Below the pieces are notes generated by a model. That model was not told where the DNA came from. It searched no databases and worked only from the letters and a program-made list of their open reading frames with translations. From the NCBI GenBank assembly GCA_027310365.1, contig DAIDAY010000001.1, positions 4,142-68,141 of the forward strand: DNA of 64,000 bases. The letters run 5' to 3'. Positions 1 to 46,796 of this stretch are shown one piece after another (position 1 is the stretch's first letter; each line of letters begins with the position of its first letter). This DNA comes from a bacterium. Its GTDB lineage: Bacteria > Patescibacteriota > Minisyncoccia > UBA6257 > GWB1-50-10. Position numbers and translations under genes: made by a program.

Positions 1-362
1 CCCCGGCCAGACAGAAATTCAACGAAGGAAAAATTTTCATACAATCGACGTACAACAACACCATCATGACGGTCACCGACAAATCGGGTAATGTAATCGC
101 TTGGATGTCCGCAGGATCTCTCGGGTTTTCCGGTCCTAAGAAAGCGACGCCGTTCGCTGCTTCGAAGGTCGCGGAAGCGATAGTTCAGAAAATAGAAAAG
201 ACGGGACCCTCGACGGTCGAGATTTGCGTCCGTGGTGTCGGCTCCGGCAGGGATTCGGCGGTGCGGTCGTTTGCTTCCAGAGGATTGAACATCACGGCCA
301 TCAAAGATGTGACGCCGATTCCGCACAACGGCCCTAAACCGCCGAAAACGAGGAGGATTTAA
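1..362 (+). CDS. rpsK: 30S ribosomal protein S11, 5'-partial at window edge
   Basis: Reading the same frame back to base 3 gives ...GKIFIQSTYNNTIMTVTDKSGNVIAWMSAGSLGF..., the conserved S11 core. The ATG at 66 is internal, so the true start lies upstream of the window. Confidence 0.9.
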   Translation, partial: PARQKFNEGKIFIQSTYNNTIMTVTDKSGNVIAWMSAGSLGFSGPKKATPFAASKVAEAIVQKIEKTGPSTVEICVRGVGSGRDSAVRSFASRGLNITAIKDVTPIPHNGPKPPKTRRI

Positions 363-1069: not shown

Positions 1070-1864
1070 ATGGACGCAACGCACCGAGTGCGTATGCGTA
1101 CTATTTCTAAGGGGATGAAATATTCTCATCTCAGTGAGACGGTATCGGTGAAGACCGTCTCGGAAAAAGGAAACGTCGGCATGTTCCACATTGAGGGGCT
1201 TTACACCGGTTACGGTACGACGCTCGGGAACGCGTTGCGGAGAGTGCTCCTCTCGTCTTTGCCGGGAGCAGCTATCACGCAAGTGAAGATTAAAAATGTC
1301 GACCACGAATTTTCAACGCTCCCCGGCATGGCCGAGGACATCGTTGAGTTTACGTTGAATCTCAAAAGAGTCAGGTTTTATTTCACGGCCGACGACCCGC
1401 AGACTCTCGCTTTGAAATTCAAAGGCGAGGGTGAAGTGACGGCGGGCGACATCGACGAGAACACGTTCGTGAGGGTTTTGAATAAGGATTTGCGCTTGGC
1501 GACCATGACGAAAAAGGGAGCCGACATGGAGGTGGAATTGGTGGTTGAAAAAGGCTTGGGATACGTCGTCGCCGAATCGAGAAAAATGGAACGGCTGTCG
1601 GTCGGAACAATCGTCCTGGATTCCATCTTTTCGCCGATTGTGCGGGTTTCTTTCGAAGTTGAAAACATGCGTGTGGGCGACCGGACCGACTACAACCGCC
1701 TGAAGCTTGAGATAGAGACGGACGGATCCATCAGCCCGTCGGAAGCGCTGCACAAAGCCGGGAACGTTTTGAAAGATCATTTCGAAAAAGTTTCAGGGGT
1801 TGAAGTGATAGTTGCCGAAGTTCCGGAAGAAAAGGAAACGAAAGCGGCGAAGAAGAAAAAGTAA
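1070..1864 (+). CDS. rpoA: DNA-directed RNA polymerase alpha subunit, N-terminal domain only; alternative start at 1115
   Basis: Alpha-NTD motifs are present (GYGTTLGNALRRVLLSSLPGAAITQVKI...HEFS...ED, and TDYNRLKLEIETDGSISPSEA near the end). The protein stops after a Lys-rich tail with no alpha-CTD. Confidence 0.85.
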   Translation: MDATHRVRMRTISKGMKYSHLSETVSVKTVSEKGNVGMFHIEGLYTGYGTTLGNALRRVLLSSLPGAAITQVKIKNVDHEFSTLPGMAEDIVEFTLNLKRVRFYFTADDPQTLALKFKGEGEVTAGDIDENTFVRVLNKDLRLATMTKKGADMEVELVVEKGLGYVVAESRKMERLSVGTIVLDSIFSPIVRVSFEVENMRVGDRTDYNRLKLEIETDGSISPSEALHKAGNVLKDHFEKVSGVEVIVAEVPEEKETKAAKKKK

Positions 1865-25207: not shown

Positions 25208-25394
25208 ATGAATCCCCGAGCGATGAGGAAGGAATAAACAATGTCGCCTGTCTGAATCCCGAGTCTGCCTCAAAATTCAGTAGGTACTGAATTTTGAGGC
25301 AACGAGGTTGAGTTCGATATTTCGTGGCTTTATTCCAACGAAGAGGGAGGGGGATTCATATGAATGAAAATTCTCCTGATGAAGGGGAAGGTGG
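25208..25394. repeat. ~190 nt intergenic repeat element, copy 1 (contains hairpin 25267..25300)
   Basis: About 85% identical to the reverse complement of 42897..43053. It includes a near-perfect 16 bp inverted repeat (GCCTCAAAATTCAGTA gg TACTGAATTTTGAGGC). Confidence 0.8.
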
Positions 25395-36413: not shown

Positions 36414-37511
36414 ATGAAAGTTGCCATTCTCCATGATTATCTGAACCAGTTCGGCGGAGCGGAACGGGTGGTGAAAGTCCTTCTCGAAATTTTCCCGAAT
36501 GCCGACATTTACACCCTCCTGCACGACGTGGAGAAAACAAACGGCCTCTTCGCGAAGAACGTCAAAAAGACCAGCTTCCTCGATCATGCACTCGTAACGA
36601 GCCACCACCGCGCCCTGATTCCCTTGATGCCCCTTGCGGCCCGCCTGCTGACCGCGGACGAAGAATATGATTTGGTTCTTTCTTCTTCTGCGGGATACGG
36701 GAAGGGAATTAACGTGAAGGGGCAATATCATGTGTGCTATTGCCATACGCCCCTTCGCTACGCGTGGGAAATCGATTACCTGAAAAACTTGTCGATTACG
36801 CCCAAGGGATTTTCGCAGGTGTTCACATATCCGATCGCGCGGTGGCTCAAGACATGGGACAAGAATGCAGCGCAAAAAGTGAATCTTTTCATCGCCAATT
36901 CAACCTTCATCGCGGATAAGATAAAATCCTATTACGGCCGGGATGCGGTTGTTGTGAATCCGCCAGTCAATTTGAGCGTGTTTTTTCCGGAGAGCGGAAG
37001 CGGAAAAAAAGACTATTACCTCATGGTCGGACGGATGCTGTATTTCAAGGGCTTCGACATCGGCATTCATGCCTTCAATCATCTCCAGAAGCCGTTGAAA
37101 ATCGCGGGGAACGGCCCCGAACTCAAGAAACTCCAAAGGACAGCGAAGTCACCGTACATCGAATTCATCACGAACGCGAGCGACCAAGACCTTCGCCTCT
37201 TGTACTCGAATGCCAAGGCGCTCATTTTCCCGCAAATAGAAGATTTCGGCCTCGTCGCAGCCGAAGCCCAGGCCTGCGGGACGCCCGTCATCGCTTACGA
37301 AAAAGGCGGCATCAAAGATATCGTTATCAATAAAAAAACGGGGCTTTTCTTCGGGGAACAAACCCCTGAAGCCGTCATCGCCGCGGTGAAAGATTTCGAG
37401 AACATGCCGTTCAATCGCTCCCTGATCACCAAGACTGCAGAACGGTTTTCGAAAGAACGTTTCAAGAAAAACATCCTGGATGTTGTGAAGAGTTACGGCA
37501 TACGACTCTGA
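36414..37511 (+). CDS. glycosyltransferase, GT4 family
   Basis: A GT-B fold with the EDFGLVAAEAQACGTPVIAYEKGG motif. Confidence 0.8.
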   Translation: MKVAILHDYLNQFGGAERVVKVLLEIFPNADIYTLLHDVEKTNGLFAKNVKKTSFLDHALVTSHHRALIPLMPLAARLLTADEEYDLVLSSSAGYGKGINVKGQYHVCYCHTPLRYAWEIDYLKNLSITPKGFSQVFTYPIARWLKTWDKNAAQKVNLFIANSTFIADKIKSYYGRDAVVVNPPVNLSVFFPESGSGKKDYYLMVGRMLYFKGFDIGIHAFNHLQKPLKIAGNGPELKKLQRTAKSPYIEFITNASDQDLRLLYSNAKALIFPQIEDFGLVAAEAQACGTPVIAYEKGGIKDIVINKKTGLFFGEQTPEAVIAAVKDFENMPFNRSLITKTAERFSKERFKKNILDVVKSYGIRL

Positions 37512-37614: not shown

Positions 37615-38775
37615 ATGAAGATTTTCATCGATACGAGATCACTTGACGCAAAAATCATTTCCGGCATCCCAGAATATACGCGCTTCCTGGTCAAAAATCT
37701 CACGGAAATGTACCCGGAGGAAAAATACCTCTTCTTCTCAAACGGCTTTCACAGGAAGAGAAATCCCTCTTCTGCCGAAAACCTCCCGGGGAAGACAATC
37801 AACTACGGTATACCGAACAAAATCTGGGATACGACAAATCGTTTCTCTCATCTACCGAACATAGACAAGCTCGTGAAAGCCGATGTTTACCTGAGCCCGC
37901 ATATCGATATTCTTTCCTTTAAGGAGCCGCGGAAACACATCCTCACCATCCACGATCTTTCGTTCATCTTCCATAAAGAATTTTTCACATGGAGAAAGAA
38001 CTTCTGGCACTGGCGTCAGAACTACCAAAAGCAAATCAAGGAAGCGGGGTGCGTCATTGCGGTATCAGATTTCACGCGCCAAAACATTCTGGATCATTTC
38101 CGCATCGCCGAAGGGAAGGTTGTCCGCATCTATCCGGGGATAAACCCATACTATAAGCAACTCGGCGCGAAGGACGATGGGCTCACGACTTTTCGAAAGC
38201 AAAAAAAAATCAGTTATCCTTTCATCCTTCATGTCGGGACGCTCGAACCGCGCAAAAATGCGATCGGCGCCATAAGGAGCTTCAATATCCTCAAGGAGAA
38301 GAAGGAATTCCGGGACTTACGGTTCATTCTCGTCGGCACACGAGGATGGCTCTATGAAAAAATAGTTGCCGAGATCGCGGCATCACCCTTCGAGAAAGAT
38401 ATTCTTCTTTGGGGGAGGGCAACGGAAGAAGAATTGCGTTATCTCTACAATCTTGCGGCGGCTTTCGTGTATCCCTCTTTCTTTGAAGGGTTCGCTTTTC
38501 CATGCCTCGAAGCCCAGGCCTGCGGGACGCCCGTCATCGCTTCTGACCGGGGACCTCTTCCCGAAACTCTCGGGGAAAGCGCCTTTTTCGTGAATCCTTG
38601 GAAGGTCTACGAAATCGGAATGGCAATGGAGAGCATTTTATCACACAATAATAAAAGGGATGAACTCGTGAAGGCCGGTTTCGAAAACGTAAAGAAGTTC
38701 AACTGGACCGTTGCGGCCCGGGAAGTTATGGAAACCTTGAAAAAAAATCACCATGCCCCAAAAGACTGTTCCTAA
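37615..38775 (+). CDS. glycosyltransferase, GT4 family
   Basis: The EGFAFPCLEAQACGTPVIASDRGPLPE motif is present. The coding sequence contains an A9 homopolymer at 38201..38209. Confidence 0.8.
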   Translation: MKIFIDTRSLDAKIISGIPEYTRFLVKNLTEMYPEEKYLFFSNGFHRKRNPSSAENLPGKTINYGIPNKIWDTTNRFSHLPNIDKLVKADVYLSPHIDILSFKEPRKHILTIHDLSFIFHKEFFTWRKNFWHWRQNYQKQIKEAGCVIAVSDFTRQNILDHFRIAEGKVVRIYPGINPYYKQLGAKDDGLTTFRKQKKISYPFILHVGTLEPRKNAIGAIRSFNILKEKKEFRDLRFILVGTRGWLYEKIVAEIAASPFEKDILLWGRATEEELRYLYNLAAAFVYPSFFEGFAFPCLEAQACGTPVIASDRGPLPETLGESAFFVNPWKVYEIGMAMESILSHNNKRDELVKAGFENVKKFNWTVAAREVMETLKKNHHAPKDCS

Positions 38776-42896: not shown

Positions 42897-43053
42897 CACC
42901 TTACCCCTCATCGAAATGAAAGGAATAAAGCCGTGCAATATCGAACTCAGCATCGCTGCCTCAAAATTCAGTACCTGCTGATTTTTGAGGCAAGATCGGG
43001 ATTCCGACGGGTGATCGTTTACCCATTCCTTCCTTATCGCTCGGGGATTTTAA
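42897..43053. repeat. ~160-190 nt intergenic repeat element, copy 2 (inverted relative to copy 1; hairpin 42958..42991)
   Basis: The reverse complement aligns with 25208..25394 at about 85% identity. Matching blocks include the 16 bp hairpin arms, GAGTTCGATATT, GGCTTTATTCC and CCCCGAGCGAT. Confidence 0.8.
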
Positions 43054-43533: not shown

Positions 43534-43607
43534 GCGGGTATGGTTTAGTGGCAGAATGCGACCTTCCCAAGGTTGAGACAGGAGTTCGATTCTCCTTACC
43601 CGCACCA
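43534..43607 (+). tRNA. tRNA-Gly (anticodon CCC), with encoded CCA
   Basis: Cloverleaf by hand: a 7 bp acceptor stem (GCGGGTA/TACCCGC), an anticodon stem CGACC/GGTTG with loop TTCCCAA, a T-arm AGGAG-TTCGATT-CTCCT, and discriminator A followed by CCA. Confidence 0.85.
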
Positions 43608-45062
43608 CAAAGGAAAAGTCAATGCCTCGCGGCGCGAGACGCGCCGCTCGGCGACCAAATCGTATGGAGTTTTCGGGGCAAAAAGAAATTCCCGATTCCT
43701 CAAAATATGGTTCGAGCCGATGTTTTTCAGAAATGTTGGCAATTCAGAAAGATTATCTGATTCAAGCAGTTTTTCGGCTTGATTTAAGGATTTTACAAAC
43801 TCACGAGCCGGTTCGAGCCAAGATAATCCTTTTTGCTCAAGGTCGGTGATTTTCTCAGCAAGCGACACTTTTTCGGACAACAATCTCTGCTTTTTGGCGG
43901 CGTATTCTTCTGTGGATAAAGCGTCTGCTAAATAGATGTCCAGTAGCTTTTGAAGTTTTACTTCAATTTGCGATAACTGATCTTTTAAAATACTAACCTT
44001 GGCTTGTGCGTCTTGCTTTGCTTTATCTTGCTCGCTATCTAACGCCGCCAAAACTTTTTCAGTGTCTTGGCTCGACAAAGAAACTTTTTGAAGAAAAGAT
44101 TTGATTTGCTCGGTTAGTGCTTCCTCGCGGAGATAATGCTTTTCTTGGCACGGCCCTTTCTTTTTCGTGCATCGGTAGTAGTTATGTTCCTTTTGTTTCT
44201 CGGCAGTAATTGAACAACCGCAGGAAGCGCATTTTAATAAGCCAAGAAAAGCAAAATTGTGTTTACGAACTTCTTGTACCTTGCCACGCTTTGCCATAAC
44301 TTCTTGGCATTTGTCAAAAAGTTTCTTTGAAATTAACGGCTCGTGCGTTCCTTCAAAAATTTCCCCCTTCCATTTCATCAATCCTAAGTAGAAAATATTT
44401 TGTAGATTTTTCTGAATATTGCCCACTCGTATTTCTTTATTGAGATTGCCGCGCAAGCCGTTATCCTTGCACCAATTTGCGAGAGAATGAAGGGTGTATT
44501 TTCCGGTGGCGTATAGCTCAAACATTTTTCTAACTTTTGGAGATTTATCGGGGTCAATATCAACCATTCTCGTTTTCGGATTGTTGAGATACCCCACCGG
44601 AGCCCAGCCAGGCCACACTCCGTTTCGGATTTTTTGGCGTAGTCCACGCTTCACATTCTCTCGTAAATTATCTACAAAATATTTTGATTGCCCGAAAGCT
44701 ATATTGAGCATGAATAATCCCTGCGGTGTCGGTTCAAACCAAAAAGTGGGAAATTTGAGGGACTTAATCAAGCCGCGATCTACGAAATGAATAATCTTTC
44801 CGCCATCAACGGAATTTCTTGCGAGACGATCGGGGTGCCATGAGATAATCCCGTCTGCCTTTCCTGATTCGAGAATTGCCAACATTTCTGCGAATTTCAT
44901 TCGCCCAGGTTCTTTGGCAGTTTTTGCCTCGCACAGCGAGGCGACAATTTCAAGTTTTTCTTTGGCGGCAAATTCTTTTAGCTCAACAAGTTGAGCTTCA
45001 ATCGAAAGCACTTGTCGGTCGTCCTCCTCGGTAGATTTTCTCGCGTAGATTATGTATCGCAT
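43596..45062 (-). CDS. large serine recombinase (integrase), resolvase/invertase N-terminal domain
   Basis: The N-terminus (YIIYARKSTEEDDRQVLSIEAQ) carries the catalytic Ser. A recombinase domain, a Cys-rich zinc ribbon (CASCGC...YYRC) and a coiled-coil C-terminus follow. The 3' end overlaps the tRNA-Gly 3' end by 12 nt. Confidence 0.85.
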   Translation of the reverse strand: MRYIIYARKSTEEDDRQVLSIEAQLVELKEFAAKEKLEIVASLCEAKTAKEPGRMKFAEMLAILESGKADGIISWHPDRLARNSVDGGKIIHFVDRGLIKSLKFPTFWFEPTPQGLFMLNIAFGQSKYFVDNLRENVKRGLRQKIRNGVWPGWAPVGYLNNPKTRMVDIDPDKSPKVRKMFELYATGKYTLHSLANWCKDNGLRGNLNKEIRVGNIQKNLQNIFYLGLMKWKGEIFEGTHEPLISKKLFDKCQEVMAKRGKVQEVRKHNFAFLGLLKCASCGCSITAEKQKEHNYYRCTKKKGPCQEKHYLREEALTEQIKSFLQKVSLSSQDTEKVLAALDSEQDKAKQDAQAKVSILKDQLSQIEVKLQKLLDIYLADALSTEEYAAKKQRLLSEKVSLAEKITDLEQKGLSWLEPAREFVKSLNQAEKLLESDNLSELPTFLKNIGSNHILRNREFLFAPKTPYDLVAERRVSRREALTFPLWCG

Positions 45063-45145
45063 ATGATTTGGATTTTGTTGTCAATTATGGCAATATGTAT
45101 TCCACTCTGGTAATTCCAGACACAAACAACAGAAAGGAGGTCGTT

Positions 45146-45430
45146 ATGGTCAAACAGCACCTTGCAAAGGGGATGAAAGTCAAAATCCTCGAGAGGGGAG
45201 AAATGATTGACGAAGCGATCATTCGACGCATCGGGACTGGTGGATATCCGCCTACCGACGAGATCGAGATCGAGAGCCTCAAGCTTCATCCCGGGGAGAA
45301 GACCGAGTTCGCGTTCATTCGACACAACAATCCCGACCGAGAAGGGTGGCGCATGCTCTTCGAAGATCCGATGGCTGGCGGTCGCTGTTTCAGTCAGCGG
45401 GCGCCGACCTACACCTTCGAGCCAGCGTAA
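45146..45430 (+). CDS. hypothetical protein (94 aa) with strong RBS, divergent from the recombinase
   Basis: An AGGAGG sequence lies 8 nt upstream of the ATG at 45146. No homology recognised. Confidence 0.4.
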   Translation: MVKQHLAKGMKVKILERGEMIDEAIIRRIGTGGYPPTDEIEIESLKLHPGEKTEFAFIRHNNPDREGWRMLFEDPMAGGRCFSQRAPTYTFEPA

Positions 45431-45544
45431 GATGTCTTGTCCTCCCCAATCATCAACGGGCGCACGACCTTCGGGTACGGCGCCTTTCTTTTTTCTTAAT
45501 TTTTTTTGGATTTGAATTTTCATAAAAGAATTTGCCGCCAAAGC

Positions 45545-45607
45545 AGTAAATTTTTCAATCATTTTTCATTGAAAAATTTACTGGAATGATTTATATTTAA
45601 ATCATTC
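45545..45607. repeat. two adjacent near-perfect palindromes in an AT-rich stretch inside the element
   Basis: One is a 17 bp inverted repeat with one mismatch (AGTAAATTTTTCAATCA tttt TCATTGAAAAATTTACT). The other is a 10 bp inverted repeat (GAATGATTTA tatt TAAATCATTC). A GC-rich hairpin (TCGCCGCC gcag GCGGCGA) follows at about 45655..45673. Confidence 0.5.
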
Positions 45608-45925
45608 AAAAACTTGAAATTGTCCGGTTCGCGGCGAAGCCGCTCAATTTTGGTGGGGGCTTCCTCGCCGCCGCAGGCGGCGAAATGCGTTCGAACTATT
45701 TTAAGAATGGAGCACCAGACGAGACACCAAGATCGACGCGTCTGATACCATGAACATGTGGGGGCGGGGCTACTTGGAGAAACAAGAAAGTCAAGTACGG
45801 GATGCTTGGACTTGCGATTCTCGAATCGCTCGTCATGATCGCGGCGCGGGGACACCATACGACCGATGTCGTCGCAAACTTCTGCGGGGTATTCTTTATC
45901 TATACCGTTGGTAGCCGCTGGTGGG

Positions 45926-46198
45926 TTAAAGCAACCGCGGCGGAACAAGTTCCTTCCGCGCTGTGACTTTGCGGTCGATCATCTTTCGGAGATCGACGAC
46001 TCTCACGTTCCATTTTTTGCCGATCTTGAAAGCCGGCAGTTTCCCTTTTTTGCACCACGTGAGAATCGTGCGATTCGTCACGCCGAAAAATTTAGCGAGA
46101 TGCTCCGTATCGTAGATTTTGCTTTCGTTGCTCGTATTGACATTATACCACTTCGATGGCCTTCTTTTGAAAATCCGAAAAACGTGATAAAAAGGCAT
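45926..46198 (-). CDS. excisionase/Xis-family helix-turn-helix DNA-binding protein
   Basis: [38 protein letters not shown] resembles the excisionase/MerR-like HTH fold. Confidence 0.6.
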
Positions 46199-46202
46199 CC
46201 TT

Positions 46203-46796
46203 ATGCAATCTGATAGCAGAAGAACAATAAAACCGGCAGGTATTCCGCGCCTATCACAAGGGAGTGCGCCGCCATCCGTGGCTGATAGCTTCGGTTATTT
46301 TGGGTTCCGTGGGCATTCAGGCGGCAGATTTGTCTTCTCCACTCTTCATGCGGCAGCTTTTCAGTACATGGAGAACATCCGCTATGGAAGGCGCGGCGCG
46401 ACCGATGGGGAAGTTATCCTCGCGGCGAAGAAAGCGCACTGCCACGCATTCATCGAGATACTGCCTGAAAAGTACCAAACGTATGTCGGCGAGCGCCAGT
46501 GGGTCGCGATCGCGCGGGCGATTTTGAAAGACGCGCCCATTTTGGTTCTCGACGAAGCAACTTCGAGCTTGGATTCCGAATCGGAAGCGCTCATCCAGGA
46601 TGCGCTCCGTACGCTCATGGAAGGGAAGACGGTTATTGTGATCGCTCACCGGCTTTCGACGATCATGAAAATGGACCGGATTATGGTGATAAAAAACGGT
46701 GCGATCGTCGCCGAAGGGAACCACAACGATCTCTTGAAACAGAACGGTTTATACCAGAAGTTGTGGAACATCCAAGCGGGAGGATTCCGTTCGTAG
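46203..46796 (+). pseudogene. 3' fragment of an ABC exporter ATPase gene (MsbA-like). It lacks the TM domain and Walker A and has an in-frame loss of the LSGGQ signature.
   Basis: ...ENIRYGR..ATDGEV...[42 protein letters not shown]...[11 protein letters not shown]... has the Q-loop-adjacent, Walker B, D-loop and H-loop regions. Where ERG..LSGGQRQR would be, the sequence reads ERQW. Confidence 0.6.

Follow-up and report, generated by a model that had tools for sequence, protein, structure and literature searches.

A probable 2.1-kb integrative element, composed of a large serine recombinase gene and one passenger gene, at a tRNA-Gly(CCC) gene of a patescibacterium

A 64,000-nt stretch of DNA from a patescibacterium (contig DAIDAY010000001.1; hereafter the window) very probably contains, at about 43606-45717, one copy of a 2.1-kb integrative element that consists of a large serine recombinase (LSR) gene and one passenger gene, lies at the 3' end of a tRNA-Gly(CCC) gene and belongs to a family from Patescibacteria (CPR) whose members insert at tRNA ends. 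Besides the LSR gene and the passenger gene, which encodes 94 aa, the element contains a terminator-like hairpin, a double hairpin of 64 nt and, at its right end, a conserved 93-nt segment (A'), and GCACCA is present on either flank. It has two genes and a length of 2.1 kb, compared with 2.3-3.5 kb in its relatives, more than 35 of which share a common compact layout with defined ends. All data are metagenome assemblies, and activity of the window copy today can at most be inferred.

The target gene, tRNA-Gly(CCC), is located at 43534-43607 on the plus strand and was identified by ARAGORN and by Rfam (RF00005, 64.5 bits); it was the sole match in an Rfam scan of the window. The recombinase gene (43596-45062, minus strand, 488 aa) overlaps the tRNA gene on the opposite strand by 12 nt including the CCA, as the first-pass annotation of this DNA had stated. 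The last three codons and the stop codon of the recombinase gene (TGG TGC GGG TAA) read as the reverse complement of CCA and the 3' strand of the tRNA acceptor.

By its domain architecture and catalytic motifs, the encoded protein is a large serine recombinase, which settles the recombinase class that had been left to be checked. It contains the Pfam domains Resolvase (PF00239, 1.3e-20, residues 4-150), Recombinase (PF07508, 5.8e-16) and Zn_ribbon_recom (PF13408, 1.9e-8). The N-terminal resolvase-type catalytic domain has the serine nucleophile, and the motifs YARKS10T and D77-R78-LA-R81 (DRLAR) are present in the translation; the C-terminal Recombinase domain is followed by a zinc ribbon with four Cys in a CxxC...C...C pattern. 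The closest solved structure, matched by residues 210-357, is the C-terminal domain of the A118/LI integrase (4KIS/6DNW, E = 6e-7), and many heptad-like charged and Leu repeats are seen by eye at residues ~330-430. More than 7900 homologs of the recombinase were found, ranging from 488 to 827 aa, with C-terminal tails that are variable past '(F/I)P x W'. The top homologs are 80-88% identical, and related recombinases at this level of identity occur in different CPR classes.

This architecture is that of phage serine integrases, and the A118 integrase is the best solved relative; together with the decayed flanking genes, it could point to the stump of a prophage or larger island from which the other genes were deleted and a phage-type integrase was kept. 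Such an origin is extremely unlikely. Phage LSRs are at most 28% identical to the window recombinase, a search of 2.9 million viral contigs gave two partial matches, whereas genome contigs contain at least 494 relatives, and the compact layout with defined ends is common to the related elements. The earlier suggestion of either a minimal element or a prophage stump is retained in its first part and abandoned in its second, since the family is nearly absent from viral contigs.

The extent of the element was read from a comparison with 80 related elements. Window DNA is conserved at 43600-45080 and 45450-45725 only, the conservation ends at about 45720, and A' meets host DNA at the right end of the conserved block (~45717). 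Two Logan contigs (L081 and L082), which are independent assemblies of the same strain, begin within A'. The core of the left junction (attL), placed by sequence and by attP/attL/attR triples, is GCACCA at 43602-43607, which corresponds to tRNA positions 71-76 and recurs at the right junction. Adjacent to it, the conserved P' arm (43608-43700, conserved end ...TTGACTTTTCCTnnn|TGG) is formed by the 3' ~100 nt of the recombinase gene. At the other end, A' (45625-45717, plus strand) represents the P arm of attP and forms the attR junction with host DNA; its terminal GCACCA lies at 45712-45717, and GTTCGAAC is located at 45689-45696, 29 nt from the GCACCA end.

The divergent intergenic region (45063-45145) contains, for the recombinase gene, a promoter-like site (45113-45084, minus strand) and, for the passenger gene, its Shine-Dalgarno sequence. 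The passenger, or cargo, gene (45146-45430, plus strand) is preceded by AGGAGG 6 nt before its start, in agreement with the earlier report of a divergent 94-aa ORF with a strong Shine-Dalgarno sequence. The 94-aa protein has no Pfam match and its gene is conserved in 0 of 80 related elements; 19 homologs in all were found, some of them in plain chromosomal contexts, and passenger genes are diverse among family elements. A GC hairpin followed by a T-run at 45459-45510 (plus strand), detected by folding, is probably the passenger terminator.

Segment b (45523-45624) consists of two halves, 45523-45543 and 45608-45624, which are separated by the 64-nt double hairpin (45544-45607). A perfect 16-bp hairpin (45544-45559/45568-45583) and a second 10-bp hairpin up to 45607 are followed by GC hairpins, and the fold of 45431-45725 has a z-score of -5.7. 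When joined, segment b (38 nt) is 100% complementary to nt 83-120 of the recombinase gene (44943-44980, codons 28-40). The repeat is unsplit in about 40 loci, and the split variant is also found in L006, L011, L027, L036, L065, L068, L080 and L163. The palindromes (45545-45607) and GC hairpin of the first-pass annotation are real; the sequence comparison identifies the palindromes as a lineage-specific insertion of 64 nt into a conserved segment of 38 nt, and not as an att core.

Three further genes lie to the right of the element and are host genes beyond attR. These are a PAP2_C remnant (45772-45966, plus strand, aa 145-197), an HTH_17 gene with an excisionase-family fold (45926-46198, minus strand, Pfam 1.2e-11) and an ABC-exporter pseudogene with a ~1.1-kb internal deletion (46203-46796, plus strand), in which only residues 12-61 and 441-483 of a relative's exporter remain. 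The small ORF at 45802-45966, in which a PAP2-like motif had been recognized, matches PAP2_C (E = 0.0048) and is 66% identical to the C-terminus of a relative's intact 203-aa PAP2_C protein. The truncated PAP2_C remnant lies about 50 nt beyond attR, the DNA in between being unassigned; the right flank has therefore been rearranged and is not a pristine target.

The HTH gene and the small PAP2-like ORF had been counted as part of an element of ~2.7 kb (43534-46330) that ended against the ABC fragment and in which the HTH protein served as excisionase, the palindromes as core and a duplicate as the source of the rebuilt tRNA end. The HTH_17 fold is an excisionase fold, the gene is less than 500 nt from the recombinase element, and decayed neighbour genes are often seen at island ends, but none of the 80 related loci contains the HTH_17 gene, the PAP2-like ORF or the ABC fragment. 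In L169, intact PAP2_C and ABC exporter genes (the latter extends to the contig end) flank an HTH_17 gene that is 88% identical, and there is no recombinase gene; L170 likewise has the HTH_17 gene and no recombinase gene. Neither the conservation nor the attP-type right end extends past 45717, and a tRNA segment duplication is missing. The larger element is thus largely refuted and very unlikely. The assignment of the HTH gene to the excisionase family and the decay of the ABC-ATPase fragment were correctly recognized, whereas the former is no element gene and the latter does not mark the element end, which is at 45717 and not at 46330. HTH_17 as the excisionase or directionality factor of the element was rejected on account of its absence from the 80 related elements and its presence without recombinase in L169 and L170.

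The 2.1-kb element shares its position at a tRNA gene with its family. Among 72 related loci with at least 90 nt downstream, a convergent tRNA 3' end is abutted by the recombinase end in 58, and a tRNA gene is located at most 160 nt away in 6 more; the tRNA partners of the family comprise 26 anticodon species in total. The element end is conserved as ...TTTCCTnnn|TGG and is followed by variable tRNA sequence, and in L007 the gap between tRNA-Leu and tRNA-Pro is filled exactly by the element. Empty sites, whose search in relatives had been recommended, were found in about 60 related genomes, which keep LepA-DivIC-tRNA-Gly(CCC) without a recombinase. Most of the tRNA-Gly(CCC) genes of these relatives end in ...GCAC, and the CCA is not encoded. 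The element family of Patescibacteria is very large, inserts behind almost any tRNA gene and is apparently undescribed; literature searches returned no description of it, which is not proof of absence.

Several features would be accounted for by a recombinase that is resident and domesticated, serves as a DNA invertase or regulator, is inherited vertically beside tRNA genes and has the small gene as its regulated target. Several homologs are annotated as 'DNA invertase Pin-like' (JGI), long inverted repeats surround the recombinase and the neighbour gene in canonical relatives, one inversion isomer exists among these, and copies within one genome are old. The DNA of such copies is only 65-89% identical, so recent intragenomic transposition is not supported. 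A resident recombinase is nevertheless very improbable: the conserved LepA-DivIC-tRNA-Gly site is occupied in some genomes and empty in others, proteins 80-88% identical are found in different CPR classes beside 26 tRNA species, junction triples behave as attP, attL and attR, and contigs frequently break at family elements. The same cargo and end also occur at a different host site, as L163 has an 85%-identical passenger homolog in a like element and shares the A' end; at positions 1-185 of L163, the homologous A' adjoins the recombinase-end arm in an attP junction. An integrated element driven by an LSR at the tRNA 3' end, as first proposed, is borne out by the domains and the junction triples.

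For the integrative element of the window, the circle junction is predicted to read ...TTTTAAGAATGGAGCAC|CACAAAGGAAAAGTCAATGCC and the empty site ...CTCCTTACCCGCAC|CAGACGAGACACC. For the source strain, neither an excised circle nor the exact empty site was found. A NUDIX look-up returned two same-strain contigs, in both of which the tRNA-Gly site is occupied; the predicted empty-site 23-mer had no match in JGI metagenomes, and exact-protein look-ups with the recombinase and with DivIC gave no matches.

The attP, attL and attR sites were compared in 28 related loci, which place the crossover at tRNA positions 72-74. The attR sites leave attP after GCAC (~10 loci) or GCACCA (~9 loci), and attL joins at (G)CAC in the 28 triples. 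The shared att core comprises 2-8 nt in these triples, with 2-6 bp at tRNA positions 72-76, and is GCACCA in the window; as is typical of LSRs, the att sites are short and long flanking direct repeats are missing. The triples do not agree on one crossover dinucleotide: L022 contradicts CA (72-73), L039 contradicts AC (73-74) and L049 fits neither, and any choice of one dinucleotide would be provisional. No second copy of the 24-nt tRNA end was present in the window at up to 3 mismatches, so an attR of the tyrosine-integrase style is rejected. The tRNA 3' end had been thought to be rebuilt from a duplicated tRNA segment, and a distal partial duplicate was to be sought; the distal junction is marked only by the 6-nt GCACCA at 45712-45717.

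The T-loop DNA GTTCGA of the target gene (43584-43589) lies at a distance of 24 nt from the CCA end. The distance of GTTCGA from that end is 24 nt in the tRNA and 29 nt in attP in nearly all of 30 loci, which is a constant 5-bp offset. In attB, the zinc-ribbon motif of LSRs lies 5 bp nearer the crossover than it does in attP (PMC3783163). The GTTCGA offset matches this shift toward the centre, which is seen here in the tRNA-side half-site only, and the motif is tentatively assigned to the zinc-ribbon domain. The host-side attB half, downstream of the tRNA, shows no conservation, which is unusual compared with classical serine integrases.

In the proposed mechanism, the recombinase would join the attP of the element to the tRNA gene 3' end. 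The attP would be composed of the right end A' (...GTTCGAAC-N15-GCAC) and the left end (CA-nnn-AGGAAAAGTCAA...), the latter doubling as the 3' end of the recombinase gene. A 2-bp crossover is postulated within tRNA positions 72-74, where the discriminator base is followed by the first C of CCA, so that the tRNA would stay intact. The element would supply the remaining CA of CCA where the gene encoded the first C (C74) only, and the recombinase ORF would read across the junction to a stop codon within tRNA DNA. The broad tRNA range could be due to the zinc-ribbon domain reading the universally conserved T-loop DNA GTTCGA; the innermost 4-8 bp of attP agree in each subfamily with the acceptor ends of the tRNAs that it uses. 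The element encodes no directionality factor.

Several known systems resemble the present family in part. Phage LSRs (A118/LI, Bxb1 and phiC31) have the same Resolvase, Recombinase and zinc-ribbon domains, short att cores without long direct repeats, and an outer motif that is 5 bp nearer the crossover in attB than in attP. They differ in sequence, as given above, and in carrier, which here is a 2-3.5 kb one-passenger element and not a phage; the present family targets many tRNA 3' ends and not one site, has one conserved attB half-site and encodes no directionality factor. In Tn4451 (TnpX), Tn5397 (TndX) and SCCmec (CcrAB), an LSR alone moves a cargo-bearing element via circular intermediates, with several target sites and a 2-bp crossover, and excision has been demonstrated. 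These elements are larger than those of the present family and are not known to target tRNA genes.

Members of the IS607 family are also IS-sized, are moved by a serine recombinase and produce no target-site duplication, but their TnpA is small, has an N-terminal MerR-like HTH and is usually accompanied by TnpB, whereas the window element has a 488-aa LSR and no tnpB. Classical tRNA islands and prophages have a tyrosine integrase and a ~15-50 bp tRNA 3' duplicate, neither of which is present in the window element. Tycheposons of Prochlorococcus are likewise cargo-carrying integrative elements at tRNA genes of streamlined genomes. A tyrosine recombinase is encoded by 910 of 937 tycheposons and related cryptic elements, and a minority have an LSR; tycheposons are similar in size to 10-20 kb PICIs, often contain replication modules, have a one-tRNA-specific integrase and leave partial tRNA copies (10.1101/2020.12.28.424599). 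In contrast, the present family has a size of 2-3.5 kb, a single cargo gene, 26 tRNA species as partners and no tRNA duplication, and falls outside the tycheposons.

Patescibacteria have tiny genomes, and their gene exchange is little known. A recombinase family with thousands of members that moves one ordinary gene to almost any tRNA end would be a major route of CPR gene flow. If the T-loop hypothesis is true, which is directly testable, these enzymes would be natural LSRs with a broad yet precise target range, and such an LSR could serve genome engineering by providing a predictable landing site in any bacterium.

The window copy is a simplified family member that has lost the ~290-nt leader with the internal inverted attP and repeats, which in canonical relatives lies between the recombinase and cargo genes. 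Most relatives have this inverted attP inside the element, together with mosaic inverted repeats whose copies stay identical within any one element. Canonical members are composed of two modules, the recombinase and a single cargo gene, each bracketed by ~100-bp inverted repeats. At their outer ends, these repeats constitute the two attP arms, and an integrated canonical copy therefore always keeps a second intact inverted attP. The repeat arms are 97-99.5% identical within an element compared with 67-86% between elements, and segments of the recombinase gene recur in the cargo module as short inverted copies, whose cyclic order is that expected of a gutted inverted recombinase module.

As a tentative possibility, canonical members could form a programmed multi-site system. 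Its internal attP might recombine with additional tRNA genes and need no excision factor to do so; it might also serve the cargo as a sigma70-like junction promoter, with TTGACT and TATTCT separated by 17 nt, and, with the short repeats, might permit inversions that split and silence the recombinase gene. Together with T-loop read-out, such a system, if true, would be a new way of spreading single genes over all CPR tRNA loci. The conserved, co-evolving inverted-repeat architecture of canonical members merits experiments. An RNA or single-strand fold of the leader repeats a, b, c, d, x and e was rejected, because the repeats cross one another and give no coherent fold. Within the recombinase gene, nested repeats f, g, h and i show 68-96% Watson-Crick pairing over 61 genes, compared with 18-56% upon sliding one arm; the arms are both coding sequence, vary little and show few compensatory changes.

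The tRNA-Gly(CCC) gene (43534..43607; Rfam, 64.5 bits) is the sole tRNA gene detected by ARAGORN in the 64-kb window. A 488-aa recombinase ORF (43596..45062) is located on the opposite strand and ends with TGG TGC GGG TAA, the reverse complement of the tRNA acceptor 3' strand plus CCA; the 12-nt overlap of the two genes is therefore real. The encoded protein contains the Pfam domains Resolvase, Recombinase and Zn_ribbon_recom, which is the architecture of a large serine recombinase (LSR), and its closest solved structure is the C-terminal domain of the A118/LI integrase. The overlap reported in the first-pass annotation is thus confirmed by ARAGORN, Rfam, the ORF end sequence and Pfam, and the other features listed there (a 94-aa ORF with AGGAGG, two hairpins at 45544..45607, GC hairpins, an HTH_17 ORF and an ABC fragment) were all found as described.

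More than 7900 homologs of the recombinase were identified at E ≤ 1e-20. The top 120 show 80-88% identity and are spread over many lineages of Patescibacteria, with Wolfe-, Jorgensen-, Moran-, Kuenen- and Yanofskybacteria among them. With one genome scanned per species, at least 494 relatives were obtained, of which 80 loci (L001-L080) were retained. In 72 of these loci the downstream DNA was long enough to look for a neighbouring tRNA gene. In 58 of the 72 a convergent tRNA gene meets the recombinase gene 3' end to 3' end, the two touching or overlapping, and in a further six a tRNA is located within 160 nt, beyond a tRNA-like fragment. The target tRNAs represent 26 anticodon species and 16 amino acids. 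The earlier interpretation is right in that the mini-element is driven by an LSR and integrated at the end of a tRNA gene. The terminal element DNA reads ...TTGACTTTTCCT-nnn; next come TGG (the CCA) and variable tRNA sequence, so that the protein tails past '(F/I)P x W' vary, with predicted lengths of 488-827 aa.

Identity as a phage integrase was rejected, since only two partial matches to the recombinase were found among 2.9 million viral contigs and phage LSRs are at most 28% identical to it. Literature searches did not find a description of this recombinase-element family. The nearest concept is the tycheposon, which differs in enzyme type and size and is set further apart by replication genes and one-tRNA specificity. 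The window element belongs to a very large family, which looks like a new variant among LSR integrative elements.

DNA conservation between the window and the 80 loci is confined to 43600-45080 (recombinase) and 45450-45725. The region of the 94-aa ORF is conserved at the DNA level in none of the 80 loci, and no conservation with them was found to the right of ~45725. The right conserved block, A' (45625-45717), ends with ...GTTCGAACTATTTTAAGAATGGAGCACCA, and the left junction reads ...CCCGCACCA|CAAAGG; GCACCA thus flanks the element on both sides. The ~2.7-kb extent proposed earlier has to be shortened accordingly, with A' terminating at 45717. Two Logan assemblies of the same strain begin within A', at window positions 45679 and 45683, which is an assembly break as would be expected where an element end is repeated. 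The recombinase 3' end, as its reverse complement, directly adjoins a copy of A' in most relatives, as a circle junction (attP) should appear in sequence. The attP, attL (tRNA junction) and attR (far junction) sequences were compared in 28 loci. The attL sequences match attP from (G)CAC onward, and the attR sequences part from attP behind GCAC (about ten loci) or GCACCA (about nine); the comparison places the crossover at tRNA positions 72-74. The choice between CA and AC as the crossover dinucleotide is blocked by the loci L022, L039 and L049. The element of L007 occupies exactly the space from tRNA-Leu to the 5' end of tRNA-Pro.

In nearly all of 30 loci, GTTCGA or a version of it with one base changed begins 29 nt before the CCA end in attP and, as the T-loop, 24 nt before the CCA end in the tRNA. 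In LI integrase the motif of the zinc-ribbon domain is located 5 bp nearer the centre in attB (the target) than in attP, and the same shift is valid for several LSRs (Rutherford et al. 2013, PMC3783163). From these offsets we infer that the zinc-ribbon domain of the recombinase family reads T-loop DNA, which would make almost any tRNA gene usable as a target. The innermost attP bases (GCACCA, GACCACCA, CGGAGCCA, CACCGCCA and others) agree in each subfamily with the acceptor ends of the tRNAs that it uses. No conservation of the host-side attB half was found in the 28-locus comparison, a departure from classical serine integrases. The element encodes no directionality factor, and its excision is putative.

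Of 80 metagenome loci whose LepA is 50-78% identical, about 60 keep the conserved gene order LepA-DivIC-tRNA-Gly(CCC), and no recombinase, HTH_17 or NUDIX homologs were found downstream in these ~60 loci. Recombinase-free versions of the locus, which the first-pass annotation had asked for, are thus present; the exact empty site of the window strain was searched for and not found. Most tRNA-Gly(CCC) genes of these loci end with GCAC followed by A-rich DNA and do not encode CCA. In the set L083-L162, encoding of just the first C behind the discriminator (GCAC or GCTC) prevails, and genes with an encoded CCA are a minority. The GCAC-ending empty sites fit the loci in which attR is GCAC|host. The earlier view that the element rebuilds the tRNA 3' end is wrong; in the loci with GCAC|host the missing CA of CCA now comes from the element. 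In five of the surveyed loci (L113:7001-9277 and L157-L160) the LepA match is interrupted after about residue 61-66 by ~480-530 nt, possibly an intein, an intron or some other inserted sequence.

The genes to the right of the element have a counterpart in L169, where no recombinase gene was found. There, an HTH_17 gene 88% identical to that of the window has an intact PAP2_C gene (203 aa) on one side and an ABC exporter gene on the other, the latter called at 488 aa and running to the contig end. The window retains residues 145-197 of PAP2_C (45772-45930), with the first ~144 codons gone and ~50 nt of unassigned DNA separating the remnant from attR. The ABC remnant corresponds to residues 12-61 and 441-483 of the L169 protein, reflecting a ~1.1-kb internal deletion, and the LSGGQ signature region is also missing. 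The PAP2_C, HTH_17 and ABC genes are absent from the 80 related elements, which, together with the L169 context, identifies the genes at 45718-46796 as decayed host genes. The HTH_17 gene, previously taken for a Xis-like gene of the element, was rejected as such on the same two grounds.

The 94-aa passenger protein has only 19 homologs, some of which (L165-L168) are encoded in ordinary chromosomal surroundings. An 85%-identical copy, accompanied as in the window by segment b, A' and the double hairpin, is present in L163 and L164, next to host neighbours (SIMPL, TruB) that differ from those of the window. The equivalent cargo position in other elements, which are 2.3-3.5 kb long, is occupied by methyltransferases, a radical-SAM enzyme, SDR, NAD(P)HX dehydratase, a bPH_2 protein, FAD oxidoreductase and membrane-anchored small proteins. 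This diversity indicates that the family shuttles single, ordinary genes.

Canonical relatives (among L001-L080, e.g., L007:6923-9461) have six pairs of inverted repeats, named a, b, c, d, x and e, at fixed positions. Counted from the recombinase start, the upstream segments are A (-1087..-1002, its outer end joining host DNA), b1 (-1001..-967), c1 (-303..-277), d1 (-275..-249), x1 (about -238..-219), A' (-226..-141), e1 (-144..-44) and c2 (-44..-18, followed by the start codon), with the cargo gene on the opposite strand between b1 and c1. The segments b2 (85..119), x2 (137..156) and d2 (1334..1360) are within the recombinase gene, and e2 (1360..1460) joins the tRNA. Pairs a, b, c, d and e are each 94-100% complementary in most of the 80 loci, and the x pair was observed directly in L005, L007 and L013. 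The arms show 97-99.5% identity within a locus and 67-86% between loci, and thus evolve in concert. The repeats cross one another, so no single RNA fold can accommodate them.

In canonical elements the junction A'|e1 forms a complete attP whose orientation is opposite to that of attL and attR. When the modules are drawn as circles, the cyclic arrangement of b, c, d and x in the cargo module is that expected of an inverted recombinase module; the cargo module looks like such a module with most of the recombinase gene deleted and a cargo gene inserted. L163:1-1130 and L164, contigs of two separate ENA assembly records, show exactly the isomer that results when the DNA between x1 and x2, which are 20-nt repeats, is inverted; the recombinase gene is interrupted after nt 157 and joined to d2s-c2s-cargo. 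L051:7799-9600 is a lone recombinase module with inverted tRNA-Ala-type 3' ends on both sides: on the left tRNA-Ala(CGC), which is intact, and on the right a 36-nt tRNA fragment and then tRNA-Ala(TGC). Recombination of the internal attP with a second tRNA gene would give such a structure. Toward the cargo, the attP junction carries TTGACT or TTGCAA, a 17-nt spacer and a second hexamer (TATTCT, TATACT, GATAAT or CATAAT, in diverged subfamilies), a possible junction promoter facing the cargo gene. The window copy keeps pair b only, split by a 64-nt double hairpin, and presumably lost the c1..c2 leader. The split-b variant is common to eight other loci, and the palindromic core described earlier is this hairpin and not an att core.

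Four nested inverted repeats of 16-18 nt (43728-45/44873-90, 44076-91/44314-29, 44392-407/44670-85 and 44474-89/44654-69), three perfect and one 94% complementary, are present inside the recombinase coding sequence; only three others of ≥16 nt were found in the 64-kb window outside the element. Across 61 genes these pairs are 68-96% Watson-Crick, compared with 18-56% when one arm is slid. The repeats (43728-44890) are kept across the recombinase family; their columns are mostly invariant coding positions, and compensatory changes are few.

Other arrangements of element ends were also observed. In L014 and L029 no tRNA follows the recombinase 3' end; its place is taken by an A'-type arm from another subfamily, carrying GTTCGAGC/GTTCGGAT ~28 nt from CCA, and the attR flank of L011 carries another left-end-like arm, which suggests tandem or nested elements. 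L004:2731-2845 is a 115-nt miniature consisting of only a left-end arm and an A' end, flanked by GCACCA with no adjoining tRNA; possible readings are a MITE-like derivative and a remnant of a deletion. Elsewhere in the window, a perfect 17-bp hairpin (TGCCTCAAAATTCAGTA..TACTGAATTTTGAGGCA) at 25266-25301 (region 25265-25301) has a 20-nt copy at 42956-42976, ~100 nt downstream of lepA, and the two may represent a repeated element resembling a terminator. A perfect direct repeat of 35 nt (37262-37296 and 38508-38542, 1246 nt apart) may mark paralogous genes.
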